A stretch of DNA of 64,000 nt from a virus (Duplodnaviria > Heunggongvirae > Uroviricota > Caudoviricetes). Position 1 is the stretch's first letter. Every line of letters starts with the position of its first letter. Below the pieces are notes generated by a model. That model saw only the letters and a list, made by a program, of their open reading frames with translations, was not told where the DNA came from and ran no database searches. Made by a program: the position numbers and the translations under genes. Below are positions 15,201 to 33,806 of this stretch, in pieces. The stretch is taken from IMG/VR virus record IMGVR_UViG_3300033146_003879, positions 118,990-182,989 of that record; one strand, given 5' to 3'.

Positions 15201-17101
15201 TTAACTGAATCAGGGTACACAGAAGATCTTCTGTTTATCAGCTCATAAAGAGCGGTAAACATCTGATCAATATACACAAGACTATCTTTTCCTGGTATTG
15301 TTGTGGTAGCCTCGTCTTGTGGTACTACTGGCCCTAACATTGTTGGAAATAGGTCTTTGTATGGCGCCGATGGGGTACCTCCCCACTCCTCTATGGCGTC
15401 GTAGGTTACGTTTGATAAGCGGGTTGCACCACCCGAAAAGAAACTTCCTCCAGACCCCGTCGACATAACGATGCTCGTCTCCCCTGTATGGAGAAAGTAG
15501 TCGAGATAATCATCGAGGTTTATTACTGTTCCATCAAGGAATGTTATCTTTTTCTCAGTAACAGTAAACATAGGTAAGAATGTGTCCTTCATGTATGCTG
15601 TACCGTCGCCAGGGTCAGGTGCACCTGTGTTGTGGTACAGGTAAGGATTGTTCTTATGGGAAGGTTTGTAGATGTCCCAAACTGGTACTTTCAGGCTTGG
15701 GTCAAACGTAGGATCTAGTTCTGTTGTTCCAGGCGCCATATTTGCTATAGCGTGTCCTAGTGATGCTGGTATGAATGCAAATTGAGCACTGGATGATGAT
15801 CCGTTTAAGTATTCGAAGTTTGTGTTTCCGGTTGAGGTTACGGTAGGGGTGTCGAACATTGATTTTTGTACCCCTTCTCTAGCAACAACAAATCCATAAG
15901 TTCCTGTATTTATGAAGTTAGCGTCGTATTTGGGGTGACCGTTTATCTCAGTGCTTGTGAGTTCGCCTGACACATCCCCTCGAGAAAACAAGAAGGGGTG
16001 GTGTCTTCCGTACGTAGGAACATCACCGTCATCAAGAGGTAGTTGATCATCAAATGAAACAGGTCTACCCTCAAACACAGGAGGAAACGCCGATGCTCCA
16101 GGGATCTCTATTCGGACACTACGTGGTTTTATTGTGGCTATGTAAGGTTTTTCTTCTCGGTTCTTCATGAATGTCATGTTGAGAGGGGTGGTCAACAAGG
16201 TGGATGGTGGTACTACCTCAGGGAATATCTTAACGTGAAGCGGGAATAAACCGTCATTAAACGTGCGTGCTGACCCAGCTGTAACAGACCCTAGTGCAGA
16301 TAACAAGTCACCTACAGTCATACTTGCAATGTCACACACAATGCGAATTGTAGTATACCTCTTTTTATTGTCAATAAGAACAGGATCCTCAACAAACGTA
16401 CCGTGCTTGTCTGCCTCAGTATTGTGCTCAACGATAATCGAGATGTTGTGATGTACTGCGGTCGTAAATATATCAGGGTTAGCACCCCCCTCATCAACGT
16501 ACAACATAAGAACTGTTTCTGCGTCGAAAGGAGATGGTTCGTCAGGTGATAGAGGTATCGCATGGTAGTATTCACCGTAACCTCCGAGCCCGTAGTTAAG
16601 AATCAGGGTGTAAGCGTCAGCTGTGTCAATAGATCCTGAAGAGTCCCAGTTACTTGCTGCCGCAAATCGAACCGGAACATATTGTAAGAGACGGCTGCCA
16701 GGAACACTTGTTCCGATAACACCAGAAAGGTCTCCCGGTTTCCATACTCGGATATTCACATCGCGGTCTTTCTTGTAGTAAGGGCTTCCGTAGGTCGCTT
16801 CCGGTGGGGGAGGAACAGCCGCAGGATGTCCCACAGCAGTTGCGCTAGGTTCACTTTGAGCGCTCATATACAGTTGGATCTTATCGAGGAACAACCTATG
16901 CTCAAGGCTTGACACCTCACTTTGGTTAATCCCATGCATTAGGCTAACCATCCGAGAATAAGCAGAACTACCGTAGAGCTCCGATTGACGAACGGGGTCA
17001 CAGTCCTTGTAAAAAATACCGCTGTTCTTAATGTTGTTCTTTTTGTAATCGCGAGCCATGAGTCTCCTCCTTGTTGTCACATCGAAATTATAGTAGAACA
17101 A
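12287..17101 (-). CDS. giant structural protein (1604 aa)
   Basis: Uninterrupted 4.8-kb ORF. First gene of the minus-strand structural operon, downstream of an AT-rich divergent control region. Confidence 0.6.
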   Translation of the reverse strand: MFYYNFDVTTRRRLMARDYKKNNIKNSGIFYKDCDPVRQSELYGSSAYSRMVSLMHGINQSEVSSLEHRLFLDKIQLYMSAQSEPSATAVGHPAAVPPPPEATYGSPYYKKDRDVNIRVWKPGDLSGVIGTSVPGSRLLQYVPVRFAAASNWDSSGSIDTADAYTLILNYGLGGYGEYYHAIPLSPDEPSPFDAETVLMLYVDEGGANPDIFTTAVHHNISIIVEHNTEADKHGTFVEDPVLIDNKKRYTTIRIVCDIASMTVGDLLSALGSVTAGSARTFNDGLFPLHVKIFPEVVPPSTLLTTPLNMTFMKNREEKPYIATIKPRSVRIEIPGASAFPPVFEGRPVSFDDQLPLDDGDVPTYGRHHPFLFSRGDVSGELTSTEINGHPKYDANFINTGTYGFVVAREGVQKSMFDTPTVTSTGNTNFEYLNGSSSSAQFAFIPASLGHAIANMAPGTTELDPTFDPSLKVPVWDIYKPSHKNNPYLYHNTGAPDPGDGTAYMKDTFLPMFTVTEKKITFLDGTVINLDDYLDYFLHTGETSIVMSTGSGGSFFSGGATRLSNVTYDAIEEWGGTPSAPYKDLFPTMLGPVVPQDEATTTIPGKDSLVYIDQMFTALYELINRRSSVYPDSVKRTELLINPETVSAVGFSIEVTDLASDLNNIHVDRWKRISPTTYTLPLIPLLLGTPSPTTPVYVGAILPTGFINIITPNAHGAEPKAYVVTDILGATKRSTYIGNVRDPGVNVGNFRSGGTIIGTNGAITTTNSGEGLPPFTPLPQQAIMRRPLPALESPEHGLVGDQFTGYSSIYSSLNLFLGGSTKRIYGGVNETKIEHTGDTATGYSIHFGDISDTISITHEPQASMHVVLSDLLSNLSMGQATTIAINDKSSGARLGGQAGDLVVDATVNSIYTTAVAGSDGTNGHDQRAFGRYNEASLLRRTVFTSAATNIDTYINVQHVLESLSDYSPPPAHDTLTIDTFTRFRTLLRKTYSTSLVQTYLKRTLNRSLPDAMVDNFTVDVDYYTDLKLSSSARGNCAKNRSVLFSAEYILALVYGISYESLTSTTYGDYITATTTTEKFYPAIESSRAATYTSAPQYDIAHIALFNPSIIATKTDATTDPTSASDTFVFNPIQLNTVPNTDTNPTSEKYRMSTYYREIDSPDSDLGSGSFAQSLGLLSKIKLAGATSTANKTKVFPFAMITLPVYAVSEVSPGVSRKYFNVDAANYIKKVTLIRSTPGVYAAGETRVDITNLYKGTERTVLDLGLTKYVADRDDSLGRNKDIVAYPPLAEAAKDYSATFIRQQYDASVQDSSGEFHVLQLADPTISSVDGTRETTLETMTMNDTLSDLSYYPDVSSPLIITRTATDIVFEDNNVLVSNPDMYTPPVPGKATLHTIAMAVSDSVLRELTFEQIAVDIKLNTPSTATDPLNLDHEIEISPINAFADLSLGISLEIDLVDDLVDVLHDHGLVLGTDPTVLSDDFTAPYSGITRAAIKVGDTAADHTQWSDAGSIPGLSVPITVSIGYLPLYFHDTDADLVPYSTIQDAIMYSADTENKFACTVNSGLLTAQNSDEFASQERTTVRPGKVVITQRMRNVKIYSTVKKGS

Positions 17102-17294: not shown

Positions 17295-17570
17295 AGTCCC
17301 CAAATCAACGTAACTACCTGATAATACTACATGCACTTGGGGACTACTCGGGGACTTACTCTGATATTCGGGGACTTATTCCTCCTTTGCAAAGTAGCAT
17401 TAGTTGTATACTTTATTTAGTATCACAAGTGATACGTTAGGTTTACTGTAGTATACAATCCAAATAATTAAACGTCTTGTGTTCGTGTTTTTGTGTATTT
17501 CTGTGCAATGCTAGTCCCCAGATTTGCCGAGTAACTCCCCGGATCTTGGAATAACTCCCCAAATTTACCC
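17295..17570. promoter_or_regulatory. divergent control region with about 7 GGGGACT / AGTCCCC repeats
   Basis: agtcccca at 17295 and 17513, ggggact x3 at 17337-17385, actcccc at 17544 and 17564. Lies between the starts of 12287..17101 (-) and 17721..20115 (+). Confidence 0.45.
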
Positions 17571-17720
17571 TTCTGTTTTTCGCCACTTTATCCTCTTGTT
17601 TATTTTTGTGTGCGGCATTTTAATTAGACGCATATTTAATCAACAAATTATTTTTAATCAACCAGTACTTCCCCTTGTTATATACCCTATAATTAGAGTG
17701 ACGTTATTTTGGAGGCATAA

Positions 17721-20115
17721 AATGCATAATGTAAAACCGTATCAAGTTAGAAGACAAGCGGATGGTGAGCTCCACCCTGTAGCTATAACGGAGAGGCTAC
17801 TCGCTGTTCGTGACAAACAGTACTCAAGCCCTGTATTATTGCTTCGAGAACAACCCTACCTGCTTGATGGAACACCTACTGTTGCTGTGACACGTGTGTT
17901 AGCAGTGAGTTCACCACTAACAGAGGTTGCTCCTACGGCCGTTGTTCCTATAGAGTCCTTTGTTGTTAGTTACACAGAAGGCATTATATACCTGAACGAG
18001 TCTGAGGTCCCTACCGGAAGTGATGTAAGTGCTGCTTTATATATAGTAGAGTATAGTGGGCTAGGTACACTCGTCAGCACAAGAGATATTCTCAGCCGAG
18101 ACGCTGATGCGTCAAACGCGAGTGACACAAATAGTGCTCTCCAGCGCTTTAACGTAACAGATTCTTACAAACTGGACCCCTCATCATATACGGCGTCTGC
18201 ACAAACAACAGCAGACTCAGTCAATGATGTCTTCTCCTTCGTCCTCTCCGGGGTATATATAACTGTTGCGCGCAATTCTACGGTCTCGTTTATGGAGATG
18301 GATAGATCCACAGCAACACTGAACGCAGTAGCAATAACATCAGACGCGATACCTAATCTAGCAGCCTCAAACCCTGCAGATATATGCATCATATCAGAGT
18401 CTGCTACTGCAATACACGACGGGCTTGGCGGCTTACACTTATTTACCTTGTCAGGAACCTCTTCCGGGACAGCGCGCCGCCTCAAAGTAACATCATTTAA
18501 ACTAGGCTTTACTCCGATAAAACTTGCGGTATTATCACCAGGGAACGACTCTATTATTGTGACATATGTCATGGGTAACGGTACTGGTGCTTATTCCACA
18601 GGGTATTTGCGCTTAACATCCGGACTTATGTTGTTTGATCAAGTAAACATAGACATAAGTAGTCACATAGATACCGGGTTTATTGATATACTCAGTGTGT
18701 CCTCAATACAAGGACCAAACACAACATTTAGTATTTTACAGAGCACCGGAGGAACAACAGTAAGCGTGACGTCGCTGTACTTCAATAGTTATATTTACGA
18801 CGCTCCTGCAGGAGAAGTTATAAGAACAGGAACCCTACCATTTTCAGGGAACATGTACTCCTTCGCCGCCGGCTACGGACCCGACGGCTCTGTTGTAGTA
18901 GCAACGTTTGCCTCATTTACTATGGGACCAAATCTCTATACTACAGCAATACACCCAGATGGAGAGTGCACTACCCTAACCTTCCCGCTGATGCCGAACG
19001 AACAGATTGTGAGCACCACCCGATCACACGGACTCTACATAGGTGTTACTCGCTACCTCGACGGCTCGGATGTGCACTTAAGAACAGCGTTATTCGACTT
19101 TGCAAATTATGAGATAAGCCCCCCTTTAGACATAAATGCATCCGTCACAATCGGTCCGGTTGCACACAGAGAGAACCTTTCTGTATTTACCTATGAATAC
19201 GGAGGCTTTGCCCAAATTATTTACTACGACAACCGCACAGCGAGTAACACGAAGTACGTCCTTGACTATGCGCGGTTCGACACAAAAAGAGACGACTGCG
19301 TACATCCTGACGGACTGCTCCAATGGGAAGGCGACGTCATTAGTGACGAGACTTACATAGACGATACAACACCAGGAGTCCAACTTACTCTGCTAACAAC
19401 ATGTAAAGACACAGAGATTGAGGCAAATTCAGCAGGAACAATCGAGGCTACCGTAACAGGAAAACAAGATGTAACAGGGGACGTCGCGAGCTTCAGAGTT
19501 ACTGCAACTATTCATAATGATGGAATGGCAACAACTATTGTAGGGACCCCAACAACAACAGTACTCGCGAGCACGGCTGGTGCTACAGGCTGGGTAGCGC
19601 GCGCATACAATGCAGGAAACTATCTTATTATCTTTGTACATGCAGACGGCTCTACAAACAACGTACACTGGTCAGCAGAAGGGTTTGTTGTTAAAACAGA
19701 ACTACCTGCAGTTTACACACCAGGAAGCCTTGCTGTATGGGAAGGAGAGACGACAACAGATGAAACTTACGTCAACGATACGACACCAGGAACAAAGTTC
19801 ACATTAGTGCCGGCATCAACAGTAGATACACTAGCGAGTGGTGAGATTGCCAACGTATCAGCTGTAGTTACTGCCGCATCTGTTTCTGGTGAAGCTGCAA
19901 GCTTTAGAATAGAAGGGACTGTGCAGTATGACGGATCCACAACAATTCTTATAGGAACACCTACCGTGTCTGTTCTCGCAGCGTCTGCCGCCGCAGTTAC
20001 ATGGAGAGCACGTGTTTACTTCGATAGCAATCAGATCGTTATTTATGGACACGGGGACGGTAGTGGCGGCGACACTATTACTTGGAACGCCAAAGGTATT
20101 CTTATTAAGTTCTAA
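17721..20115 (+). CDS. tail-fibre / receptor-binding-like protein with internal ~130-aa domain duplication
   Basis: Start at ATG 17721 is preceded by ggagg. Two C-terminal repeats (TYIDDTTPG...WSAEGFVVK and TYVNDTTPG...WNAKGILIKF). Ser/Thr/Gly-rich composition typical of fibres. Confidence 0.5.
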
Positions 20116-24158: not shown

Positions 24159-24499
24159 TGGTGGAGGCGGCGGGAATCGAACCCGCGTCCTAAAAACCTT
24201 CAAGATAGATACTACATGTTTAGTCCGTCTTTACTAAAATCTTCGGCGCCAACGGACAGGCCCCTCGAAGTTTCCTACGCTAAAGTTTTCGTGGCATCTC
24301 CCACATAGAAAGGATCAACCCTTAGTCTCACAGTTGTGCGCCCCAATTGGTGTCGTGAGCACCCCTCCAATAGGACGGCAGCTTATGCTGCTATGAGTTC
24401 AGTTTTTGCGTCTCTGAACGTGCCGCTTTTTACGAGGCCCGCGGCGCCTCGACATGCATCTATTCTCTCCGCGAATCCAGTCGAAACCAGGTCGCCCCC
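24159..24499 (-). ncRNA. ssrA: tmRNA (ssrA-like), about 341 nt, phage-encoded
   Basis: Minus strand reads 5' GGGGGCGACCUGGUUUCGACUGGAUUCG ... GGACGCGGGUUCGAUUCCCGCCGCCUCCACCA 3'. The 7-bp acceptor stem (GGGGGCG / CGCCUCC) carries a G3.U pair. T-arm GCGGG-UUCGAUU-CCCGC with terminal CCA. Internal putative tag frame ends ...ACU GAA CUC AUA GCA GCA UAA (TELIAA*). Confidence 0.8.
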
Positions 24500-24502
24500 A
24501 TA

Positions 24503-24907
24503 TTACAAACTACACTCCTTAACAATATGTTCTGTTCTCAAAGTGTCCTCAAACAACATAGAATGATAATACATCCTATGCCAACCGACCCAGGTAATGC
24601 TGTATGCATAGCAATACGCATGCTGGGAACGGAAATCAATAGATCCGTCAAAGATAGCGCTAACAGGAACTATCTCACCAGCGTATTCGATGATTCTCTC
24701 AGGCAGCAACAGGTAGCGCCCTCGCGCATACATCTTACCAAACGAGGTGAGCGCCTCCACATCTATTCTGTGGACCTTCCCCACTACCCCAATAACGGTA
24801 CCGACAAGGCCTTCATTAACAAGCTTACGCAAATAGGTCTCGCCCTTTATGCGCATATATTCGCGCAAGCTACCGTCAACTCTGTCACCATACATAGATC
24901 TAGCCAC
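24503..24907 (-). CDS. small protein, paralogue family B member 1 (probable GTG start)
   Basis: KIDVEALTSFGKMYARGRYLLLP motif shared with B2 and B3. Leader AGGGGG + 6 nt + GTG is conserved with B2. Confidence 0.45.
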   Translation of the reverse strand: MARSMYGDRVDGSLREYMRIKGETYLRKLVNEGLVGTVIGVVGKVHRIDVEALTSFGKMYARGRYLLLPERIIEYAGEIVPVSAIFDGSIDFRSQHAYCYAYSITWVGWHRMYYHSMLFEDTLRTEHIVKECSL

Positions 24908-24917
24908 AACGCACCCC

Positions 24918-25274
24918 CTAAACACTACCTATATTATCAACAGTTAAGCTATCAGTAAACAATAGAGGGCTAAGTATGATACCGCCTTCCGATATTCGGT
25001 AACCATCTACCATACCGTATGAAGACCTAAAGTCCGTGGCTAGCATAGGGCACACCTCCGCCTCTACCACCATACCTGCATTAGATATCATATCACAAGG
25101 CATCAACAAGAACTTGTTTCTACTAAACATCTTTCCGAATGTCTTAAGCATATTTATCCTTATTTTATATAAACCAGAGGGAGACCTTGTATCATTCACC
25201 CTTGAGTAAATCCCCTCATATATCATTCTCCCAAGGAACTCTGAACTCTGGACACGAAGTACTTTTGTCCGCAC
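24918..25274 (-). CDS. small protein, paralogue family B member 2 (GTG start)
   Basis: KIRINMLKTFGKMFSRNKFLLMP. About 65 bp of conserved upstream sequence shared with B1 (minus-strand TTTACT-17-TAATAT promoter-like). Confidence 0.45.
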   Translation of the reverse strand: MRTKVLRVQSSEFLGRMIYEGIYSRVNDTRSPSGLYKIRINMLKTFGKMFSRNKFLLMPCDMISNAGMVVEAEVCPMLATDFRSSYGMVDGYRISEGGIILSPLLFTDSLTVDNIGSV

Positions 25275-25413
25275 GCCACACCCCCTAAACGTTACCTATA
25301 TTACCAACAGTTAGGTTATCAGTAAACAATAAAGGGTTAAGTATAACACCATCACCCATAACCTTAGCGCCTATACCGCCAACAGAAACCCCAAGCCCTG
25401 TAACTACTTACAG

Positions 25414-25429
25414 TATCTTATACCACAAT
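25414..25429 (-). promoter_or_regulatory. recurrent promoter-like motif, copy 2
   Basis: cttataccacaat. Minus strand reads TGTGGTATAAG. Confidence 0.4.
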
Positions 25430-25668
25430 AGCAGCTCGTTAAATGTCACTGTCTGCAATATTGTTCACCATAAAACCAGTTGTAAATAGTGTAGGTTGGT
25501 AATGCAACGCATCATGCGTGCCGTCATTTACTAGGTCCCTAGGAATACCTTACTTTATATATGCACAGTAATCTCACCGCCTCTTACCATATAGCACTCT
25601 CCAATAAACGCCCCTCCCGAAGGAGAGGCAACACTATAAGCAGCGAGCTGCGCCCGCTTCCTAATACT

Positions 25669-26058
25669 TTAGATACCACCTAGATTATCCCCCAAGAGAC
25701 TATCGCGGAATAGTAATTGACTAAGACCGAATCCTCCATCCCGCAGTTGATACCCGACAGCATATCCTTTACTAGCGAAGTAATCGCACAACCAAGACTC
25801 ACTCGCCTTTACGTAGACAAGTCTATCAGCCATATCGAATAACTCTAAAGGAAGGACCAGGTAGTACTTCCTTCTATATAGCGGACCGAACGACATAAGC
25901 TTACCTACATCAATCTTATAGGCCTCACCTTCTCTTCCGTATGACCTAGCGACACTTCCTTCTTTAACCATTGTATCCAAAAAACCCCTACTCTGGGCAC
26001 GTACTACTCTTATAGCCACTCTACTTTCCCAATCAAACGGTCTCAGAATCTCACTCAC
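25669..26058 (-). CDS. small protein, paralogue family B member 3 (GTG start after GGAGGG)
   Basis: KIDVGKLMSFGPLYRRKYYLVLP. Confidence 0.45.
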   Translation of the reverse strand: MSEILRPFDWESRVAIRVVRAQSRGFLDTMVKEGSVARSYGREGEAYKIDVGKLMSFGPLYRRKYYLVLPLELFDMADRLVYVKASESWLCDYFASKGYAVGYQLRDGGFGLSQLLFRDSLLGDNLGGI

Positions 26059-26070
26059 AGCACCCTCCAC

Positions 26071-26094
26071 TCAAAACCCCGCCCGAAGGCGGGG
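26071..26094 (-). terminator. rho-independent terminator (ccccgcc-cgaa-ggcgggg plus U-run on minus)
   Basis: 7-bp GC stem with a CGAAG-type loop. Minus strand continues UUUUGAG. Lies after the radical-SAM operon. Confidence 0.5.
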
Positions 26095-26215
26095 TAACAC
26101 CACAACATTTACGAGCAGTGGCCGTTACCGCCACCCCCACTGTCTCCAGAACAATGGCCGTTACGGCCTTCATCCAAACGGCGAACAATTCGCCTCAATA
26201 GCCTTGTCCACATGC

Positions 26216-27079
26216 CTACCTCCATCCATTCGTCAGCGTCCCATCTTCATAGATTACGCCGTACTTGTTATTAACTGCTCCTGCGAGCGCCTTGTATGCC
26301 ACTTTCACTCCATCCATGACAGATGCTTTCAGCGTCTCTTCACACATAAAGCATGATCTCTTTAACAGCAACGGGGTCTTCATCCCAGGAAACAACCGGT
26401 TCGTGTCAATATGTTTCTGACACCCACTAAAGTAAGGGCTCCCGAGCTTAATGTCAAACACGTCCTCAAATGAGACGAAATACTCTTCTCCGTGCTGGAT
26501 CTCACTCAGCTTTATTTCACTGAATCCCATTGCGTCGTAGTGCCGGAGGCACGCTTCAATATCCTCTCTCTTATAGAGAAAAGGCTTCACGATGTTTATA
26601 TTGATCCGGATTTTCTCCTTGTGCGGCAAGCTGTTGTAAAACGCCTGCCTGTCATACTCAGACTTTGTTCTTCGTATCGAGTCTGCGACAGCTTCGTCAT
26701 GATGTTGCACACTCAGGTTGATACCGTCACACATGTCAATGAGTCGCTCAAACATCTCACGCTCATCATGGCATATCTTCGGGACCGCCGTCGTCACAAA
26801 CACTTTGAGTTTCGTGTTCGCTTTAATGAGGATAACACAATCAAGCAACTCTTTCAGATACAGAGCCGGTTCTCCTCCAAGAAACAACACATCATCATAC
26901 CCTTCAGCATTGTTCGCAACCGTATCAGCGATAGCATAGATGTCCGGTTTGTTAATACCGAACCCCGCATAGTGCGTATCGATGCAATGTGCACACTTGT
27001 TGTCACATGCACTTGTGAAGTGTATGTCGAAACTGTTGTATGTGCCGTCGCAGCTGTTTTTTACGAATTGGTTCTTCAT
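26216..27079 (-). CDS. radical SAM enzyme (CxxxCxxC), viperin-like features
   Basis: HFTSACDNKCAHC close to the N-terminus, LFLGGEPAL glycine-rich SAM motif, C-terminal ...TNGWR. Compare viperin HFTRQCNYKCGFC, SGGEPFL and its terminal Trp. Confidence 0.6.
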   Translation of the reverse strand: MKNQFVKNSCDGTYNSFDIHFTSACDNKCAHCIDTHYAGFGINKPDIYAIADTVANNAEGYDDVLFLGGEPALYLKELLDCVILIKANTKLKVFVTTAVPKICHDEREMFERLIDMCDGINLSVQHHDEAVADSIRRTKSEYDRQAFYNSLPHKEKIRININIVKPFLYKREDIEACLRHYDAMGFSEIKLSEIQHGEEYFVSFEDVFDIKLGSPYFSGCQKHIDTNRLFPGMKTPLLLKRSCFMCEETLKASVMDGVKVAYKALAGAVNNKYGVIYEDGTLTNGWR

Positions 27080-27100
27080 TCCACATCTCCATGCAAATTG

Positions 27101-27382
27101 TCAATCAAGATTCACAGCAAGAGCCCTCTCGATACTGTTGATAACGTCCTCTGTCGTAAAGGGAGCACTTTTACGCATAAAGAGTTTAATACCAACTTCA
27201 ATTTCTTCAAAGTTCTCGCCTTGCTGGCTAACACATGTTCCCCACAGCATCACTGCGTTCATCGGGTGCAGCACCTCATCAACAGAGACATCTGCATACC
27301 GATTTGAGAAGTGGGTAACAACAGCCTGCTTGTTTGCAGATACCGCTGCCCACTCCTCCACATTGTTATATTTCTTTTTCAT
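27101..27382 (-). CDS. hypothetical protein (93 aa) in the rSAM cluster
   Basis: ORF in a compact cluster. Confidence 0.4.
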   Translation of the reverse strand: MKKKYNNVEEWAAVSANKQAVVTHFSNRYADVSVDEVLHPMNAVMLWGTCVSQQGENFEEIEVGIKLFMRKSAPFTTEDVINSIERALAVNLD

Positions 27383-27398
27383 AGTCTTCTCCTATTGT

Positions 27399-28436
27399 TC
27401 ACTGCGCGAACTCACTCCATGATATAACTGGCTTAACAGGAACAGGGTAGTTCTCCTCATAAGTAAAGCTCCTCTTTCCTTCAATATCAGCCTCGCGCCG
27501 TGCGCACGCATCCCAATAAGCATGCAGCAGTGCACTGTTCTTACGCAGCTGTTTCTGCTGACCAGAAGTAAGCCTCTCTTCGATCACTTCCCAGACCTTG
27601 CTTAACGTAGACTCATTGTCATCAATGAATGTTCTGTCGAATTCGAGCTTCGGCCCAGCGTGCCCACGGCACCACTTGACAAAGGCAGCATCAGACATAA
27701 CGCGAAGATAAGGTAACTCTTGCACAAGGCCACCGTTCGTAAAACTAATGTCACCACAGACAACATTGTCGTACAGTTCAGAAGGAATCTTCTTGTTGAA
27801 GTCTCCTGTTGCACCACAATACAGATAGAGCGCCAGCGCTCTAAACTCCCCCTCCCGGAAATATGAGATCATATCATCGGTCTTATGAGCGAACATGTAC
27901 TTCAACTTCGCCTTAATGGCCTTATCCTCCATGTAGTAGCGATAGTCATACGCTCTTTGTGCAGACCGGCACACTATGGTTAGCCATTGATCAACACTCG
28001 CCTTCTTAATCTCCGGGGTAAACCCCGGGTCAAGTAGCAACGCCACATCGATCTTTCCAACAATCTCAGGGTACCATATTACGCGCTTATGCTCTTCGGG
28101 AGTCATTTCGTAAGGGTAGTACACCGCAGCGTACAGTGCAAACGTGTCAGAGTCACTGTTTTCGCTTTTCAATATATAGTGGTAGTACGCCCGCTCCTCG
28201 TCGGACAGAGGACTTACTTTCGACAGGCTCACAAGGAATGCCGAAGGATTTACATCACGTAACCATTTCTTCGCGTGCTTACCTAGCGCCTGCTTTCTTT
28301 CTTCGGATACTTTCCCAAAGGCGTCTATATTCTCCTTGGTACACCTCGGAAAGTATGGCGCCCTCACCCCCCTTCTCTCCTTGACAAGCTCGTTCAATAA
28401 CGGAACAAGTTTGTTTAACCTACTGATGTTACTCAT
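27399..28436 (-). CDS. hypothetical protein (345 aa) in the rSAM cluster
   Basis: ORF, no motif recognised. Confidence 0.45.
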   Translation of the reverse strand: MSNISRLNKLVPLLNELVKERRGVRAPYFPRCTKENIDAFGKVSEERKQALGKHAKKWLRDVNPSAFLVSLSKVSPLSDEERAYYHYILKSENSDSDTFALYAAVYYPYEMTPEEHKRVIWYPEIVGKIDVALLLDPGFTPEIKKASVDQWLTIVCRSAQRAYDYRYYMEDKAIKAKLKYMFAHKTDDMISYFREGEFRALALYLYCGATGDFNKKIPSELYDNVVCGDISFTNGGLVQELPYLRVMSDAAFVKWCRGHAGPKLEFDRTFIDDNESTLSKVWEVIEERLTSGQQKQLRKNSALLHAYWDACARREADIEGKRSFTYEENYPVPVKPVISWSEFAQ

Positions 28437-28445
28437 ATTACCCTC

Positions 28446-29267
28446 TCAAAAAGTTTTCCATTCTAAGTTCGGTTCATCAGGAGCCTCGTCCTGTTTTCCC
28501 CGATCATAATACGATTGTTCATCGTAGTACTTCCACATAATAGCCATGTTACGCGTAAGCTCCTCAGACACATCCTCAGAGAAGGAGTCCACCATCTGCA
28601 TAAGTAATGCGGGATACCCCGTAAGCTTACCGGTATACTCCTTTGCGATCTCCTTTAAGAAGTCAATCGGTAGTTTTTCCGGGATGACATCAAGCATACA
28701 CAGGTATTTTTCGACAAGATTATATCTCTTGAGCTCAGAAATAATCAACCTGATGTCTACGGAGGTAAGTTTCTCACGCATAACAGACATGAGCATGACA
28801 GCTATATAACTGCTTATTCTCTCTTCCTCAATACGTCTTACAGGAGCACGAGCAAACCAGTGATACCACGTGTTATCAACCAGCTTATCAAGGTTTCTAT
28901 TTTCCCCGAGAAGCTCAACTGTCACTGCACTCCGCACCGGAAGAGCAGCAAGCGCACGTAGCGCCTCCAGTTCCTCAGCAGGACTTTCATATTCTTCAAC
29001 ATGGCGCATCTTTGTGATGACATCAATAACGAACCCATCTGATGGATTCATGTCGTGCGCCGCATGCAGGAGTTGAGCGCGCCCTAGCTCTGTATCCCAC
29101 AACCCGTCAAACACCGTTCGCACAAACGGGTACTCTTCCTCCAACTCCCCGATTGACGCCTTCTCCCACAACCCTCTACGGGTAAGAGAAATAATATGGA
29201 AGATCTTTTCCTCTATGCTACATTGCTGCTGCAGATAGCAGAGGTGCTTCTCTTGCACTTCATTCAT
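28446..29267 (-). CDS. hypothetical protein (273 aa) in the rSAM cluster
   Basis: ORF, no motif recognised. Confidence 0.45.
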   Translation of the reverse strand: MNEVQEKHLCYLQQQCSIEEKIFHIISLTRRGLWEKASIGELEEEYPFVRTVFDGLWDTELGRAQLLHAAHDMNPSDGFVIDVITKMRHVEEYESPAEELEALRALAALPVRSAVTVELLGENRNLDKLVDNTWYHWFARAPVRRIEEERISSYIAVMLMSVMREKLTSVDIRLIISELKRYNLVEKYLCMLDVIPEKLPIDFLKEIAKEYTGKLTGYPALLMQMVDSFSEDVSEELTRNMAIMWKYYDEQSYYDRGKQDEAPDEPNLEWKTF

Positions 29268-29294
29268 GTAGGACTCTCCTTTTCCTAAGTATTT

Positions 29295-29807
29295 TCATAG
29301 TCGGAAATCCCTCATTGTTTCTCCTGTACCCTCTGCCCTTACATACTGTGCGTGTGCTAGTTCTGGTTCTCCTGCAGCGGTGAATATGTCGCCCTGCAAC
29401 TTGGCGAGTATAGCTCGTGACTCAGTAGAGTATCCAGAGTAGTACTCCGCCTTCTCCACAACGGCAATATACCGCCAGAACCACCTGTCATCATCACGTA
29501 GATCCCGTCGAACAAGAGCACTTCTTACAAATGTGTCTGCGATAGTTGCAGCATGTGCAATGTGATTAACATGTTCAAGCCTTCCCATGAAACGAACAAC
29601 ACAGTCAATAGCACCTACTTGACTAGTTGCCATCGACACGCACCGCCGCGCGTTAGCCTCCATCCGTGCTCTCGGTGCGGGCACAAGGGAATCATGTAGC
29701 TTCATAGCTACAGGAGCAACAATCAACAACAAAACCAAAGCAATCGCTATTAAGTCAATACAGGGAGACCAACAGAACTTCCCATCTAGTTTACATAAGT
29801 TAAACAT
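29295..29807 (-). CDS. hypothetical membrane-anchored protein (170 aa), first gene of the rSAM cluster
   Basis: Hydrophobic helix LIAIALVLLLIVAPVA. Promoter motif about 85 nt upstream. Confidence 0.45.
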   Translation of the reverse strand: MFNLCKLDGKFCWSPCIDLIAIALVLLLIVAPVAMKLHDSLVPAPRARMEANARRCVSMATSQVGAIDCVVRFMGRLEHVNHIAHAATIADTFVRSALVRRDLRDDDRWFWRYIAVVEKAEYYSGYSTESRAILAKLQGDIFTAAGEPELAHAQYVRAEGTGETMRDFRL

Positions 29808-29891
29808 AGCACTACCCCTATCAAATAAAAATAAACAACCAACAAGCCCATAACATTACATTACAGGATCGATACACAGCATAAGTCTCAT

Positions 29892-29907
29892 TATCTTATA
29901 CCATAAA
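29892..29907 (-). promoter_or_regulatory. recurrent promoter-like motif, copy 3
   Basis: cttataccataaat, upstream of 29295..29807. Confidence 0.4.
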
Positions 29908-29992
29908 TATGAGAAAATAGAGGCAGTTATCCAACAGCCCGTAAAACCCGGTCTCTGTAGGCCAGGCCCGACAAAGGCCGGGATATAAGGGC

Positions 29993-30367
29993 TTACTGAT
30001 TCTTAATGTATGTCTTGATGACTTCGAGCGGTGCGCCGCCAGAAGACGTAACGTAATAAGACGGGGACCATAATTTCTTGTGCCGTCTTAATTCCGGGTA
30101 TAAAGCTCTGAGCTTTTTGCTTGTTGGCCCCTTAACTGCCTGCACTATAGAGGAGATTGACTCTGTCGAAGGGTATTCAATAAGGAGGTGGACGTGATCT
30201 AAATCGCCGTTACATTCCTCAAGCGTGATCCCCTTCTTCTTGAACGCCTGTCTTGCATAATATGCGAAGTCTCCAAGTATTCTCGGAGAAAGCACCTTTC
30301 TCCTATACTTCGTTACCAATACGAGGTGTGCATGCAAGCTGCTTATGTTTGTTCTTGACTTCCTCAT
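29993..30367 (-). CDS. tnpA: IS200/IS605 Y1 (HUH) transposase TnpA
   Basis: LHAHLVLVTKYRRKVL ... DHVHLLIEYP (HuH) ... LWSPSYYVTS (catalytic Tyr). Confidence 0.85.
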   Translation of the reverse strand: MRKSRTNISSLHAHLVLVTKYRRKVLSPRILGDFAYYARQAFKKKGITLEECNGDLDHVHLLIEYPSTESISSIVQAVKGPTSKKLRALYPELRRHKKLWSPSYYVTSSGGAPLEVIKTYIKNQ

Positions 30368-30389
30368 AACCCTAAGTATACTCTTTTGT

Positions 30390-31508
30390 ATGAAAGTGTC
30401 AAGAGCATATAAATACCGCCTTTACCCTACGCGAGAACAAGAGATTAAGTTGTCTCAGTTCGTTGGAAACAATAGATATCTCTGGAACTTCGTTCTATCC
30501 GCTCTCGAAGGCAAGAAGTGGGACCGATTCGCTGTTTCCAAACAACTTCCTTCACTTAAGTCTGAAATACCATTCCTTAAAGAATCTCCGTCTCAAGCGT
30601 TTCAACAATTGTTAATTGATATGGATGCTGCATTTAAGAGCTTCTTTCGGAAGAAACACGGATATCCGAAGTTTAAGAAACGCGGTATGCACGACTCTTT
30701 TAGAATACCGGTTGTGAAGTCCCCTGAATCTATAAACAAGAATAGCTGCGTCTGGATACCAAAATTGGGTTTTGTGGAACTGCGTTTGTCGCGTGAGGTG
30801 AGAGGAGAAGCGAAGTCTATCACTGTGTCTCGGAGAGCGGGAAAATGGTTTGTCTCAATATTGACGAAAAGCGAGATGCAGGAAACAGGCGGAAAGACAG
30901 GAAATAGTGTAGGAATTGATCTCGGCGTTAAACACTTCGCGACAACGTCGGGCGGAAAGCATATACATGCTCCAGAGGAAAGAGTGCGCTATTTAGAGAA
31001 GAGAATAGAGCGCATGCAGAGGAAAGTCAGTAGAGCGAAGAAAGGATCAAGCAACAGAAGCAAGTTGCGTCTTAAATTAAGTAGACTCCACTTAACTCTC
31101 GCGAATGTGAAAGAAGACTTCTTGCACAAGGTGAGCACACAGTTAATCAAGAACCACGATTTACTTGTGCTCGAAGACCTTGGTGTAAAGGAGATGACAG
31201 AAGCAGGAGCGAGAAAAGCGAAGTTAAATAGAGCAATCTTGCGTCAAGGTTGGTATAAATTTAGGACTTTACTTGAGTATAAGAGTATGTGGTATGGCTG
31301 TGCCGTAGTGTTCGTCCCGCCTCAATTCACGAGTCAGCGCTGTAGCGAATGCGGGAATATAAACGCAGCAAACAGAAAGACACAATCGTCATTTAAATGC
31401 CTTTCGTGTGGCCATACTGAAAACGCTGATATAAACGCAGCTAAGAACATTTTCACCGTCGGGCAGACGGGTAGAGCCTTTGGAGACGCCGCGCTAGCGG
31501 GTCGATGA
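30390..31508 (+). CDS. tnpB: TnpB (OrfB, RuvC-like, RNA-guided nuclease family)
   Basis: N-terminus KVSRAYKYRLYPTREQ, GIDLGVKHFATTSGG (RuvC-I), C-terminal zinc finger CSECG...CLSCGH, DINAAKNI. Confidence 0.85.
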   Translation: MKVSRAYKYRLYPTREQEIKLSQFVGNNRYLWNFVLSALEGKKWDRFAVSKQLPSLKSEIPFLKESPSQAFQQLLIDMDAAFKSFFRKKHGYPKFKKRGMHDSFRIPVVKSPESINKNSCVWIPKLGFVELRLSREVRGEAKSITVSRRAGKWFVSILTKSEMQETGGKTGNSVGIDLGVKHFATTSGGKHIHAPEERVRYLEKRIERMQRKVSRAKKGSSNRSKLRLKLSRLHLTLANVKEDFLHKVSTQLIKNHDLLVLEDLGVKEMTEAGARKAKLNRAILRQGWYKFRTLLEYKSMWYGCAVVFVPPQFTSQRCSECGNINAANRKTQSSFKCLSCGHTENADINAAKNIFTVGQTGRAFGDAALAGR

Positions 31509-31526
31509 ATTAGGAATCCCGGTCTT

Positions 31527-32180
31527 TCAAGGCCGGGAGGATGTCAAGACGTTGAAACCCATCTCAATCAACTTTACGAGATGTTCTGGGCTGTGCCCGA
31601 CATTAAGTGTATAGGGGCCTCCACCGACAGTGTAATCCAACATAACGCTGGAGTCTCCCTCATTGAAGCGTAGTTTACCAAACTTCGCAATCATGATTCC
31701 TGGGAACCAACTCTCAATAATCTTTTTCTCATGCTCTTTGATGTCGGACAGGAGCCTACTGCCCATTTTAACCCTACAAGGTTCACCGCAGTTTACCATT
31801 CTATCCTCCCCAAATACATCGCATATTTCATACACGATTTGATTACTACCGTTAAACCGAGACACAGGAAGCTTTCTAGCCACCATCTTATCCTGGTTAT
31901 GCCACACAGAACCTCTTGGAGACAGTGCTACAAATCGCGTTTCCCAGTCTTTAACCTTATCAAGGTAGTGTTTATAGTGCTCCGGGGAAATATCATATGA
32001 GATATCAGTTATTTCATTGCTTGCTGCTATATCAGACAGTGCCTGCATAGCGACTTCATGCTGCCCTACATTCCCGACAGGAATATAGATTGGACTAAAG
32101 TGCTTTTTGTCTTCCCAGTCTTTCTGGGAGACTCTCTTAATCGATTCGATTTGTTCTTTGCTGAGACTTTCTTTAACCAC
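31527..32180 (-). CDS. hypothetical protein (217 aa) next to the RNA ligase
   Basis: ORF. No clear phosphoesterase or kinase motifs seen. Confidence 0.4.
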   Translation of the reverse strand: MVKESLSKEQIESIKRVSQKDWEDKKHFSPIYIPVGNVGQHEVAMQALSDIAASNEITDISYDISPEHYKHYLDKVKDWETRFVALSPRGSVWHNQDKMVARKLPVSRFNGSNQIVYEICDVFGEDRMVNCGEPCRVKMGSRLLSDIKEHEKKIIESWFPGIMIAKFGKLRFNEGDSSVMLDYTVGGGPYTLNVGHSPEHLVKLIEMGFNVLTSSRP

Positions 32181-32598
32181 TCTTCTCCTCCCATTTTCTC
32201 AACTGTTTCATCAAACTTCCATCAACATCAAGGCGTCCGTCACCCATGGGATTTCCAAAACTGAACCACCCACCATCGACGGTACGAGTAAATGTTAGCG
32301 GGGTATTTTCTTCATCATCCAGATGACCATATACTAGCACGTCAGTTTCCTTTGCATACAATCCCGAGCACTGGTCAACCTCTTGTTTCCACAGCTCTCT
32401 CAGATCCTTTCGCGCGGTATTAAAGGAAGCAACGGTTTGTATATAGGCCCGGTTGTGCCGGGTCATTTTGACCTTTCCGTCGTCGAAGAAGTCATACTCC
32501 TCCCCTACCAACGGGACAGGCATTAATTTTCTAACTCCCATAGTGTTCCCCTCCATCTCCGTGGTTAGTAACAGCCGCTCTAATACCCTCTGCGACAC
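32173..32598 (-). CDS. hypothetical protein (141 aa); part of it is duplicated at 34156-34400
   Basis: PLVGEEYDFFDDGKVKMT...SGLYAKETDVLVYGHLDDEE recurs in the downstream ORFs. Confidence 0.4.
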   Translation of the reverse strand: MSQRVLERLLLTTEMEGNTMGVRKLMPVPLVGEEYDFFDDGKVKMTRHNRAYIQTVASFNTARKDLRELWKQEVDQCSGLYAKETDVLVYGHLDDEENTPLTFTRTVDGGWFSFGNPMGDGRLDVDGSLMKQLRKWEEKSG

Positions 32599-33511
32599 TT
32601 CCGATAGCTATAACACCATCGATAAGGAGCATGCCGAGATGAATTAGTGTTTTAACGCTATCATGCTGTACCCCAGACACAGGTAAAGAAGGGTTAACCT
32701 CTTTCCCTGACACCGCGAGCTTCCCATCGTCTGCCGCAGAGAATTCAACATCAACAAGAATATCTTTGACACCCTCTCGAACAGAGTCAAGAACAGCAGG
32801 ATCTTTGATAAACAACTCAACATCCTTTCTTGTAGCGGGAACAGGCTCCATATCCCACTCTTCAATGATATTCCTCTCCGGCTTTATCTTAACCATGATA
32901 CGCTTACCACTTCTGGTGAGCATACCAAGAGGCGCCTTCAATACGACACCTTCTGCGGGATACTCTTTGTTCTCCGCAATTAACGACTTGAAGTCGTTGT
33001 TGACCAGGGCATCTGCTTCGGCAAGACTCATGTTTCCGAGAAACGGAACAACAAGAATCCCTATACGGGCCGCAATGTTTTCTATATCTTTTCTCTGCAA
33101 CCACCAGCCCCCTACACGAATATCAAACAGAATGAAGGACACATCTTTCTTTATGTAGTTCCCTCCTTTCTGAATCTTCACACCATACCCTTCTCCATAG
33201 AGACAGACGACCTGTCCACCCTCAAGAGTAAACCCTTTCTTAAGAGTCTCCGGAGTAAACAACTCATGCAGCTTCTTGTCAAGGTGCCCCGGCAAGATAG
33301 CTTTATCCGTCTTACCCCGGATATCGACTTTCTCTCCATCCCAGATAACACGAATGTTCGTGCCGTCTATTTTCTCTGTTGCTTCCCACAGGGCGTTCTC
33401 GAGTACCTCAAATTCAGGCATTGCGTACGCGCCTCTTATGAGAGGCTTATTTTTCATATGCATAGCCCTCTTCCACAAAGAGTTTATCTTTGTATACTTT
33501 CCTCCGTTCAT
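32531..33511 (-). CDS. ATP-dependent RNA ligase, Rnl2-like
   Basis: Motif I EKIDGTN (compare T4 Rnl2 EKIHGTN), motif IV EGVVLK, motif V IMVKIKPE. Start MNGG is preceded by GGAGGGAGAAGG. Confidence 0.7.
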   Translation of the reverse strand: MNGGKYTKINSLWKRAMHMKNKPLIRGAYAMPEFEVLENALWEATEKIDGTNIRVIWDGEKVDIRGKTDKAILPGHLDKKLHELFTPETLKKGFTLEGGQVVCLYGEGYGVKIQKGGNYIKKDVSFILFDIRVGGWWLQRKDIENIAARIGILVVPFLGNMSLAEADALVNNDFKSLIAENKEYPAEGVVLKAPLGMLTRSGKRIMVKIKPERNIIEEWDMEPVPATRKDVELFIKDPAVLDSVREGVKDILVDVEFSAADDGKLAVSGKEVNPSLPVSGVQHDSVKTLIHLGMLLIDGVIAIGSVAEGIRAAVTNHGDGGEHYGS

Positions 33512-33524
33512 CCTTCTCCCTCCT

Positions 33525-33806
33525 CTAAACACTATCAATAAACTTGAGAAGCTCCTCTTTCTTTTTCTTGACCTCTGGAGTCAGTTCCACCTCGTGTCTC
33601 CTGATCCTCGGGAACACACCGTACTCATCTTCATAGATACTATACATTATACCCAGACCTACAGCAGGCTCTACGTATCCAAACAGATGAGAAGGCAGGG
33701 ATAACGTCACTTTCCCAAACCTAACGGAAACGAACTCGTCACTGTACGAAACTATTACACCTGACTTCTCTGCTATCAGGTTAATCATCTGCTTTCCCGT
33801 CCACAA
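33525..33806 (-). CDS. hypothetical protein (93 aa)
   Basis: ORF. Confidence 0.35.
   Translation of the reverse strand: MWTGKQMINLIAEKSGVIVSYSDEFVSVRFGKVTLSLPSHLFGYVEPAVGLGIMYSIYEDEYGVFPRIRRHEVELTPEVKKKKEELLKFIDSV

Follow-up and report, generated by a model that had tools for sequence, protein, structure and literature searches.

The radical-SAM (rSAM) gene and the short peptide gene directly downstream of it probably constitute a RiPP-like two-gene phage cassette in which, as gene context and conservation suggest, the enzyme would modify Cys/His motifs of the peptide. The cassette looks like an undescribed and widespread one: many uncultured phages have it, and Lak megaphages possess variants with Cys only. 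Nearly all known radical-SAM systems of the RiPP type are bacterial and provide antibiotics, signals and cofactors. Our literature search found neither a published description of the cassette nor a paper describing the G-H-C core motif.

Five closely packed open reading frames (ORFs), all on the minus strand and separated by 9-27 nucleotides, lie in this part of the window (the whole 64,000-nucleotide stretch of DNA that was analyzed), as the preliminary description had indicated. In the order of transcription, they encode a 170-aa protein with an N-terminal hydrophobic segment (29295..29807), a 273-aa protein (28446..29267), a 345-aa protein (27399..28436), a 93-aa protein (27101..27382) and the rSAM enzyme of 287 aa (26216..27079), and each displays an in-frame codon bias similar to that of other genes in the window. 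An exact copy of the motif TGGTATAAGATAA (29891..29903, minus strand) is situated upstream of the 170-aa gene and the operon. The recurrence noted earlier for this motif was borne out by a total of 11 matches versus 2.1 expected by chance (10 copies on the minus strand with up to 2 mismatches), and it is a putative promoter. The terminator proposed downstream of the rSAM gene is real (26073..26094, minus strand), being an intrinsic one with a CCCCGCC stem, a UUCG loop, a GGCGGGG stem and a UUUU tract (-17.5 kcal/mol), and marks the end of the operon. By contrast, the roughly 120 nucleotides between the rSAM stop codon and this terminator, which had been read as a spacer, hold a sixth gene (26109..26213, minus strand), the stop codon of which lies 14 nucleotides before the terminator. 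One promoter-like motif and one terminator bound all five genes together with this peptide gene, and the cassette would be the last part of a transcript running from the motif at 29891-29903 to the terminator at 26094-26073.

The preliminary description had placed the rSAM gene at the head of a five-gene set, in which a viperin-type or other nucleotide-modifying rSAM enzyme and the four upstream genes would form a modified-nucleotide pathway. The shared promoter-like motif and terminator fit such a pathway. However, the four upstream ORFs look like real genes but orphans. Their products, rightly called unannotatable, gave no match in Pfam, PHROGs, NCBIfam, PADLOC or the PDB. The 345-aa protein matched only itself among 5.8 billion proteins, the sole full-length match of the 273-aa protein among 1.84 billion representative proteins was itself, no relatives of the 170-aa protein were found in IMG/VR, and the 93-aa gene is an orphan as well. 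When the co-occurrence of the five-gene set in other phages was checked, none of the four upstream genes was found near the rSAM gene in any of 110 related loci. This absence and the orphan status of the partners speak strongly against a five-gene functional set; the four genes happen to be lineage-specific orphans lying by chance upstream in the same transcript, and the co-transcribed 170-aa gene is not a conserved partner. Other neighboring genes of the window were not recurrent in the 110 loci either (IS genes in 2 loci and an RNA ligase gene in 1), and the rSAM gene was the only gene common to the first 18 loci, the window included. The annotated 'hypothetical' genes beside the enzyme were misleading; what had been taken for non-coding sequence contained its real partner.

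This partner encodes a 34-residue peptide, MWTRLLRRIVRRLDEGRNGHCSGDSGGGGNGHCS, in which a basic N-terminal segment is followed by two C-terminal G-H-C motifs. Its Shine-Dalgarno sequence GGAGG (26219..26223, minus strand) overlaps the last rSAM codon, 5 nucleotides before the ATG. Almost every locus has a small ORF after the rSAM stop codon, and the peptide ATG is positioned at -1 to +13 nucleotides relative to the first base of that stop codon in 87 of 89 loci, indicating that the peptide gene is translationally coupled to the rSAM gene. A peptide with such motifs was found in 98 of the 105 scorable loci, with 89 fitting HC-x(2-16)-HC-x(0-1)-end, 8 carrying two HC motifs plus a short tail and 1 being a frameshift fusion, while the remaining loci possess Cys-containing variants (5/105) or no such peptide (2/105). 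The peptides are about 30 residues long, and their consensus consists of an M[YFW]T[KR]xLRK... N-terminus and at least two C-terminal G-H-C motifs connected by a Gly/Ser/Asp/Pro-rich linker. Among the 74 distinct peptides, the length of this linker is variable (1 to about 12 residues) but always in frame, with 2-4 motifs per peptide, and one locus contains two tandem peptide genes. Variable motif number and tandem genes are typical of RiPP precursors. The peptide gene is too short for its codon bias in the window to be of use. Nevertheless, the conserved positions use all four Gly, both His, both Cys and all four Thr codons, and this use of all synonymous codons at conserved residues indicates selection on the protein sequence; the peptide gene is a translated one.

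The rSAM family is large and well conserved, comprising 918 proteins at E <= 1e-3, the best 120 of which share 65-73% identity. Members were located on viral contigs of IMG/VR, within a Mu-like structural module and in genomes of Lak megaphages. The enzyme and peptide genes travel as a pair in many habitats, almost solely on viral contigs and within unrelated phage backbones. In distant subfamilies (Lak phages and L028, 36-39% identity), the gene following the rSAM gene ends in two G-G-C motifs, with the motif terminating a 166-aa protein in Lak phages. Replacement of G-H-C by G-G-C makes Cys the constant element.

The enzyme belongs to the radical-SAM superfamily, with a core domain (Pfam PF04055) scoring 44.8 bits versus a cut-off of 29.5. 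Its HFTSACDNKCAHC segment occupies residues 20-32 rather than 20-33 as described earlier, and GGEPAL is found at residues 68-73; the sequence does not end in GW, as had been reported, but in TNGWR with Trp penultimate. The cluster cysteines C25, C29 and C32, the GGEP at 68-71 and W286 are invariant in 48 family sequences with identity down to 32%, and so are two extra cysteines, C10 and C220, with a third, C243, kept in at least 90% of them. The AlphaFold model (pLDDT 92.4) forms a partial (beta/alpha)6 barrel preceded by about 15 N-terminal residues. In this model, C220 comes directly before a beta-hairpin (221-224 and 237-240) and C243 directly after it, followed by a helix (254-266). This order is that of twitch/SPASM auxiliary-cluster domains, and C10, C220 and C243 may bind a putative auxiliary Fe-S cluster. 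Pfam gave no SPASM hit, and the C-terminal 95 residues had neither sequence similarity to solved SPASM/twitch domains nor, in a profile search, a significant match to any solved chain, viperin included.

We then asked which known rSAM family is closest. With a profile built from 48 family members, the nine best PDB sequences were viperins or viperin-like (E = 4e-13 to 1e-10, 45-53 bits), followed by YydG (E 1.6e-5, 28 bits), QueE (E 0.035, 16.8 bits) and a PflA-type chain (E 0.99). This confirms the earlier view that the enzyme is closer to viperin than to QueE or PflA, and on sequence grounds viperins are its closest relatives among solved structures, which denotes relatedness and not membership. 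The match spans residues 12-191 and includes the rSAM core, the GGEP and the HFT-x2-C-x3-C-x2-C motif common to the enzyme and viperins, and the size of about 290 aa is also similar; PADLOC pVip models gave 39 and 32.5 bits. However, the viperin/pVip membership models NF038283 and TIGR04278 gave 33.5 and 21.6 bits versus cut-offs of 180 and 450, and models of other rSAM enzymes (TatD-linked and 'pair X'), unrelated to viperin, were equal to them (36.3 and 35.2 bits). Structural alignments with viperins have 14-22% identity, whereas true viperins are unusually conserved (42% identity between human and bacterial ones; doi 10.1101/2023.09.13.557418). In fold searches, MoaA, GDGT-MAS, SuiB and PflA rank level with viperin. 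Mouse K120, K220 and R245, triphosphate-binding residues of viperin, align provisionally with D63, N160 and G185, positions that lack a conserved basic residue, and most of the basic residues that bind the triphosphate are not kept here. Together with the unmatched C-terminal domain and the three extra conserved cysteines, the sub-threshold scores led us to reject membership in the viperin family; of the viperin-like assignment, the distant kinship stands. Furthermore, this enzyme is phage-borne and paired with a His/Cys peptide, in contrast to viperins and pVips in defense islands or beside kinases. A nucleotide-making role is accordingly very improbable, its four supposed partners being orphans missing from the related loci and the sole gene traveling with the enzyme being one for a short peptide, not a kinase or transferase.

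QueE was rejected by its PDB score and by the absence of an NCBIfam QueE hit, and a scan of proteins encoded close to the cluster revealed no queC, queD or folE partners. MoaA, the GTP 3',8-cyclase, was rejected as well (14 bits versus 231 in NCBIfam, and no MoaA at E <= 1 in the PDB profile search), the likeness being in fold only, and the gene contexts that we inspected contained neither MoaC nor any other gene for the molybdenum cofactor. In MoaA, the auxiliary [4Fe-4S] cluster is held by three cysteines only and the free iron binds the substrate, and the putative cluster of C10, C220 and C243 would follow the same arrangement. A PflA/NrdG-type activase would instead place a radical, for example on a Gly within the peptide's G-H-C motif or on a glycyl-radical enzyme of the host, without forming a stable cross-link. 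Some public sources name relatives of the enzyme 'organic radical activating enzyme' or 'pyruvate formate-lyase-activating enzyme', weak NCBIfam matches to NrdG and PFL activase models exist, and a conserved Gly adjoins His-Cys in the peptide. These matches, however, reach only 21.3 bits versus 131 and 17 versus 174, by which activase membership was rejected, the PflA-type chain in the PDB stood at E 0.99 as above, and a glycyl-radical enzyme gene was near in none of the loci examined. Activases are also not known to have such additional conserved cysteines or a C-terminal domain of 95 residues like this one. We give this reading hardly any credence.

Peptide maturases (SuiB, CteB, SkfB, ChlB and YydG) figured among the top matches by fold and by sequence, although the best solved sequence matches being nucleotide-acting viperins rather than peptide maturases counts against a maturase. 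As in CteB/SCIFF, SkfB/SkfA and PapB, the rSAM gene adjoins a short precursor-like gene with an N-terminal leader-like segment and a Cys-bearing C-terminal core. Sactipeptide and ranthipeptide maturases likewise act on motifs that are often repeated and possess extra conserved cysteines around a beta-hairpin and helix. By contrast, the present enzyme has 287 aa instead of about 400-450, lacks the 7-Cys SPASM motif, has one putative cluster ligand at its N-terminus (C10), and is phage-carried with a G-H-C core peptide and no protease or exporter. A PqqD-like RiPP recognition element was also absent from Pfam and NCBIfam scans, though such an element is not present in every rSAM maturase. In mycofactocin (MftA/MftC) and PQQ (PqqA/PqqE) biosynthesis, a very short precursor is processed at its extreme C-terminus by the adjacent rSAM enzyme, and the conserved motif is C-terminal here, too. 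However, those systems depend on additional tailoring enzymes as well as on a chaperone and a peptidase from the same locus, whereas only two genes are conserved here, and the PqqE model gave 15.4 bits versus a cut-off of 381 (NCBIfam). The epimerase YydG/EpeE, the next-best sequence match after viperins, acts on a peptide of about 49 residues encoded beside it, but the similarity is confined to the first 112 residues, and its precursor bears no relation to the present peptide.

In the favored pathway, the N-terminal segment of the peptide would act as a leader docking the peptide onto the enzyme. Cleavage of SAM at the CxxxCxxC [4Fe-4S] cluster would generate a 5'-deoxyadenosyl radical that modifies the peptide core at or beside the conserved Cys and His residues, most likely yielding a Cys-based thioether or a comparable cross-link, while the substrate thiolate may sit on the putative auxiliary Fe-S cluster of C10, C220 and C243. 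Because the cassette contains no protease or exporter (none was conserved with it in the 18 loci compared), the product probably acts within the infected cell or is freed at lysis.

Two His and two Cys residues could equally well fit a metal-binding or electron-transfer subunit as a substrate. The peptide would then be an accessory subunit whose His-Cys pairs hold a metal or a small Fe-S center, serving as electron donor or cluster chaperone, a role played by Dph3 for the diphthamide enzyme Dph1-Dph2, and the real substrate of the enzyme would be a small molecule, RNA, DNA or protein of host or phage. The strict, translationally coupled pairing suits a 1:1 complex, the four residues make up a classical set of metal ligands, the searches turned up no protease, exporter or recognition element, and the enzyme core is nearest to the nucleotide-acting viperins. 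By contrast, the variation in linker length (1 to about 12 residues) and motif number (2-4) would not be expected of most fixed metal sites, Gly takes the place of His in distant subfamilies, the Lak motif terminates a 166-aa protein, and a leader with a repeated core is typical of modified-peptide precursors. We consider an accessory subunit unlikely on balance, yet clearly less so than a nucleotide pathway or an activase.

If peptide modification by this cassette is true, it would represent a general phage strategy so far unrecognized and a peptide-linked branch beside the antiviral viperins. Enzymology would gain a compact enzyme of 287 aa that has a new core motif (G-H-C) and possibly new C-S or C-C bond chemistry. 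More tentatively, and with less confidence than in the cassette itself, the pair might represent the first widespread virus-specific class of rSAM-modified peptides, a portable cassette of the viperin/MoaA branch with new His-Cys chemistry used for host takeover or disarming. Such a class would extend over phages from ocean, sediment, sludge and gut habitats, the Lak megaphages having variants with Cys only. Its chemistry might, for instance, link His to Cys or Cys to carbon or give a product of the thio-histidine type, and the product itself might be an intracellular effector, a metal-binding peptide or a cofactor. In public records, a homologue of the peptide is labeled only 'hypothetical protein'.

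All five minus-strand ORFs of the cluster that the preliminary description had headed with a radical-SAM (rSAM) enzyme (26216-27079) were found where it had placed them. The ORFs follow one another closely, only 9-27 nt apart, and the codon bias in frame for each of them is on par with that of other genes in the window, indicating that the five are probably real genes. The rSAM motif HFTSACDNKCAHC occupies residues 20-32 of the 287-aa product rather than residues 20-33 as had been reported, GGEPAL lies at residues 68-73, and the C-terminus reads ...TNGWR. The terminator proposed for the end of the cluster corresponds to a strong hairpin at 26094-26073 (−17.5 kcal/mol; stem CCCCGCC, loop UUCG, stem GGCGGGG) followed by UUUU, while the proposed promoter motif is present as TGGTATAAGATAA at 29891-29903, upstream of the gene for the 170-aa protein. 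In its general form, TGGTATAAGA(T/A)A, this promoter-like motif has 11 matches on both strands of the window versus 2.1 expected by chance, and 10 of them lie on the minus strand, the gene-coding one (25413, 29891, 37819, 46578, 48016, 48378, 49232, 52790, 60462 and 60500). The recurring motif is likely a promoter consensus proper to this element. With respect to ORFs, motifs, promoter-like motif and terminator, the initial observation was thus largely correct.

The enzyme belongs to the radical-SAM superfamily by Pfam (44.8 bits versus a cut-off of 29.5), and no curated NCBIfam family claims it, all scores being below cut-off. It reached 33.5 bits with the viperin_w_prok model (cut-off 180), 21.6 bits with the viperin model (cut-off 450), 36.3 bits with the TatD-linked rSAM model (cut-off 129.7) and 35.2 bits with TIGR04100 (cut-off 262), and 39 and 32.5 bits with the PADLOC pVip models. 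At E <= 1e-3 its family comprises 918 proteins; the 120 top-scoring ones are all metagenomic and 65-73% identical to it, and the copy of Lak megaphages is 36-37% identical. An alignment of 48 members with divergence down to 32% identity revealed C25, C29, C32, GGEP and W286 among the invariant residues, and outside the SAM cluster two further invariant cysteines, C10 and C220, together with C243 in at least 90% of the sequences. When a profile built from this alignment was run against all PDB sequences, the top nine matches were all viperins or viperin-like proteins (E = 4e-13 to 1e-10; 45-53 bits, covering residues 12-191), followed by YydG (1.6e-5), QueE (0.035) and a PflA-type chain (0.99). 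Because viperins head this search, the impression that the enzyme is nearer to viperin than to QueE or the activases was right at the sequence level. With the NrdG, PFL activase, MoaA and PqqE models, the enzyme scored well under every cut-off. We consider a model in which it acts as an activase very improbable.

The C-terminal 95 residues of the enzyme matched no solved chain. In an alignment with mouse viperin, the positions of K120, K220 and R245, which we take to be triphosphate ligands, correspond to D63, N160 and G185 of the enzyme, and a conserved basic residue is found at none of these three positions in the 48-member alignment. Human and bacterial viperins are 42% identical, true viperins being unusually conserved (doi 10.1101/2023.09.13.557418), and structural alignments of the enzyme with viperins gave identities of 14-22%. 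The enzyme is only distantly related to viperin and lies outside the viperin family. The nucleotide-pathway model of the preliminary description, with a viperin-like enzyme and dedicated partners making a modified nucleotide, draws on this kinship; in view of the replaced ligand positions and of the partner genes discussed next, we regard it as highly unlikely.

The four partners, ORFs of 93, 345, 273 and 170 aa upstream of the rSAM gene, had no match in Pfam, PHROGs, NCBIfam, PADLOC or PDB, and their relatives were not found in IMG/VR. The 345-aa protein, the one partner searched for in phage genomes, had no match there and only itself as a match among 5.8 billion proteins. The search of 1.84 billion representatives with the 273-aa protein likewise yielded the protein itself and, beyond that, a single marginal match of 38.7 bits over 30 residues. 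A set of 110 related loci, each with 3-10 kb of sequence to either side, was drawn from metagenomes, metagenome-assembled genomes and viral contigs. The rSAM gene was present in 110 of 110 and the four partners in none, and all-against-all clustering of the ORFs of the first 17 loci and the window left the rSAM gene as the sole gene common to all. Its surroundings vary, with a Mu-like head and tail module at one extreme and arrays of small unknown genes at the other. The four upstream genes were therefore rejected as conserved partners, and the supposed dedicated gene set is, by this co-occurrence check across sequenced loci, a lineage-specific accident of position. Overall, the preliminary description was partly right on the enzyme, which is viperin-related, but wrong on its partners.

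When small ORFs following the rSAM gene were listed for each locus, almost all loci proved to have a short one that starts at the rSAM stop codon or a few bases past it. This ORF in the window has its ATG at 26213-26211 (−), preceded by a GGAGG (26223-26219, −) that overlaps the final rSAM codon, and its stop codon at 26111-26109 (−), 14 nt ahead of the terminator stem. The 34-residue product is MWTRLLRRIVRRLDEGRNGHCSGDSGGGGNGHCS, and homologues from other loci include MYTKFLRKLLTRRAYGNGHCVPESPKPSGHCY, MYTKLLRKIVKMMRTMAGHCDGDGGGYNGHCY and MFTRILRKVVKKLENSRNGHCSGDIDGGGGTGHCY. A Cys-rich ORF of 45 aa in a different frame (26051-26188) was rejected since it reads through the terminator and lacks conservation.

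With the window included, 105 of 111 loci could be scored for the peptide. It fits HC-x(2-16)-HC-x(0-1)-end in 89 of the 105, and in 87 of these 89 its ATG lies −1 to +13 nt from the first base of the rSAM stop codon. Eight further loci have a short tail after two HC motifs, five carry Cys-containing variants, one carries a frameshift fusion of rSAM and peptide, and two lack a recognisable peptide. Linker length differs among the 74 distinct peptides with the reading frame always kept, and wherever Gly, His, Cys or Thr is conserved all of its synonymous codons occur, indicating that selection acts on the amino-acid sequence. These loci thus show the pairing of enzyme with peptide, their coupling and conservation, and the coding status of the peptide gene. 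Peptides with three or four motifs occur in some loci: L026 and L027 encode precursors of 74-75 residues with four (N/G)HC motifs, and L005 carries two peptide genes in tandem downstream of 8853. The peptides match no NCBIfam model, and one of them, UniRef A0A8S5NHV3, is found on 55 contigs with 'hypothetical protein' as its only public label.

In Lak megaphages (Lak-B5 phage, locus L017, 7974-9365), the gene after the rSAM gene encodes a 166-aa protein rather than a 30-residue peptide; it ends in SSGGCGNTYGSPYHHWSGGC, and its last 19 residues, SGGCGNTYGSPYHHWSGGC, contain two G-G-C motifs. An 83-aa protein resembling the Lak version, with the end ...SSGGCGSGSSYQPNGGC, is encoded in L028, and these G-G-C-type ends suggest that a protein tail may be the substrate in distant subfamilies. 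The variant in L094 reads GCH...SCH, and cysteine is the sole core residue retained across all subfamilies. The rSAM-peptide fusion (P0177; L011, 7968-8942), a product of 318 aa found on four contigs, is due to a single-base frameshift within an A-run, by which the conserved ...NGELMKGWV end is replaced. As the invariant W286 is thereby lost, we take the fusion for a probable sequencing error or pseudogene and left it out of the evidence.

The AlphaFold model of the enzyme is confident (pLDDT 92.4). In Foldseek, viperins rank first and MoaA, CteB and SuiB follow closely (TM-scores 0.5-0.62), so comparison of this predicted fold fails to discriminate among rSAM families, and BFVD, a set of predicted viral protein structures, gave generic rSAM matches only. 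In the model, two of the three extra conserved cysteines bracket a beta-hairpin (221-224/237-240), with a helix (254-266) coming after it. The same order of Cys, beta-hairpin, Cys and helix is found in twitch/SPASM auxiliary-cluster domains, and when only three cysteines ligate a cluster, one of its irons is available to a substrate, as in MoaA and CteB.

The cassette, that is, the rSAM gene plus the peptide gene, has the anatomy of systems in which a ribosomally made peptide is modified after translation: besides the rSAM enzyme it encodes a short precursor, translationally coupled to it, whose N-terminal segment is basic and conserved and whose C-terminal core is repeated and centred on Cys. 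From this anatomy we infer that the peptide is the substrate of the enzyme, a reading that we consider moderately probable, and the putative auxiliary cluster and the chemistry are inferred along with it. Combining the extra Cys arrangement with the three-Cys, free-iron precedent of MoaA and CteB, we propose that the leader of the peptide would dock onto the enzyme and a core Cys would bind the putative auxiliary cluster, whereupon a 5'-deoxyadenosyl radical could take hydrogen from a residue nearby, resulting in a thioether or similar cross-link. Within this peptide-substrate model, the specific thioether chemistry is tentative. The main rival, in which the peptide serves as a subunit that binds metal or donates electrons and the enzyme acts on something else, appears rather unlikely to us when set against the leader-and-core layout of the precursor.

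Given identities of 65-73% on unrelated phage backbones and no protease or exporter, the cassette behaves as a mobile, self-sufficient accessory module, and its product most likely acts within the infected cell. The distribution is almost exclusively phage: with one genome per species, 185,579 species yielded only 14 loci, all on metagenome-assembled-genome contigs. Radical-SAM-modified peptides as such are an already known kind of system. This family is set apart by a viperin-related core that carries its own C-terminal domain, the G-H-C core motif, the minimal two-gene layout and the near-exclusive phage distribution, and literature and family-library searches returned no account of phage rSAM-peptide systems or of the G-H-C motif.

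In several unrelated loci, RNA-repair genes lie no more than a few kb from the cassette, namely an RNA ligase in the window (32531-33538, −) and in L099 (2688-3308), RtcB in L001 (13909-15135), and a RlaP nucleotidyltransferase with a CCA-adding enzyme in L007 (11609-14027). This proximity may be functional, or only positional through placement among early or accessory genes. A complete tmRNA gene (24159-24499, −; Rfam RF00023, 173.6 bits; ARAGORN tag peptide AKTELIAA) is located 1.6 kb downstream of the cassette. Between it and the cassette terminator (24503-26070, −) are three paralogous genes (25669-26070, 24918-25274 and 24503-24925, all −) that are 30-34% identical and have the motif ...SFG..Y.R..YL.LP... 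in common; a second terminator-like hairpin (25609-25630) and the promoter-like motif copy at 25413-25425 lie in this region.

The source genome looks like a large, very novel phage-like element. A near-identity DNA search of phage genomes left the window unmatched, and neither Pfam nor PHROG gave a match for three very large proteins of 1585 aa (4-4761, +), 1604 aa (12287-17101, −) and 863 aa (17524-20115, +); tblastn against 50,697 phage genomes, run with the 1604-aa protein alone, gave no match either. The window also encodes RNase H, NAD-dependent DNA ligase, RNA ligase and an HNH endonuclease. An IS200/IS605 element (29993-31508) lies directly upstream of the promoter-like motif of the operon, with tnpA (Y1 transposase; 29993-30367, −), tnpB (30345-31508, +) and a hairpin-rich end near 29930-29990, and tnpA and tnpB are also present ~3 kb upstream of the rSAM gene in L011. 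GC skew is strong and sustained (−0.19 to −0.27) from 20000 to 46000 along a long minus-strand gene array, interrupted only at the IS element (30001-32000).
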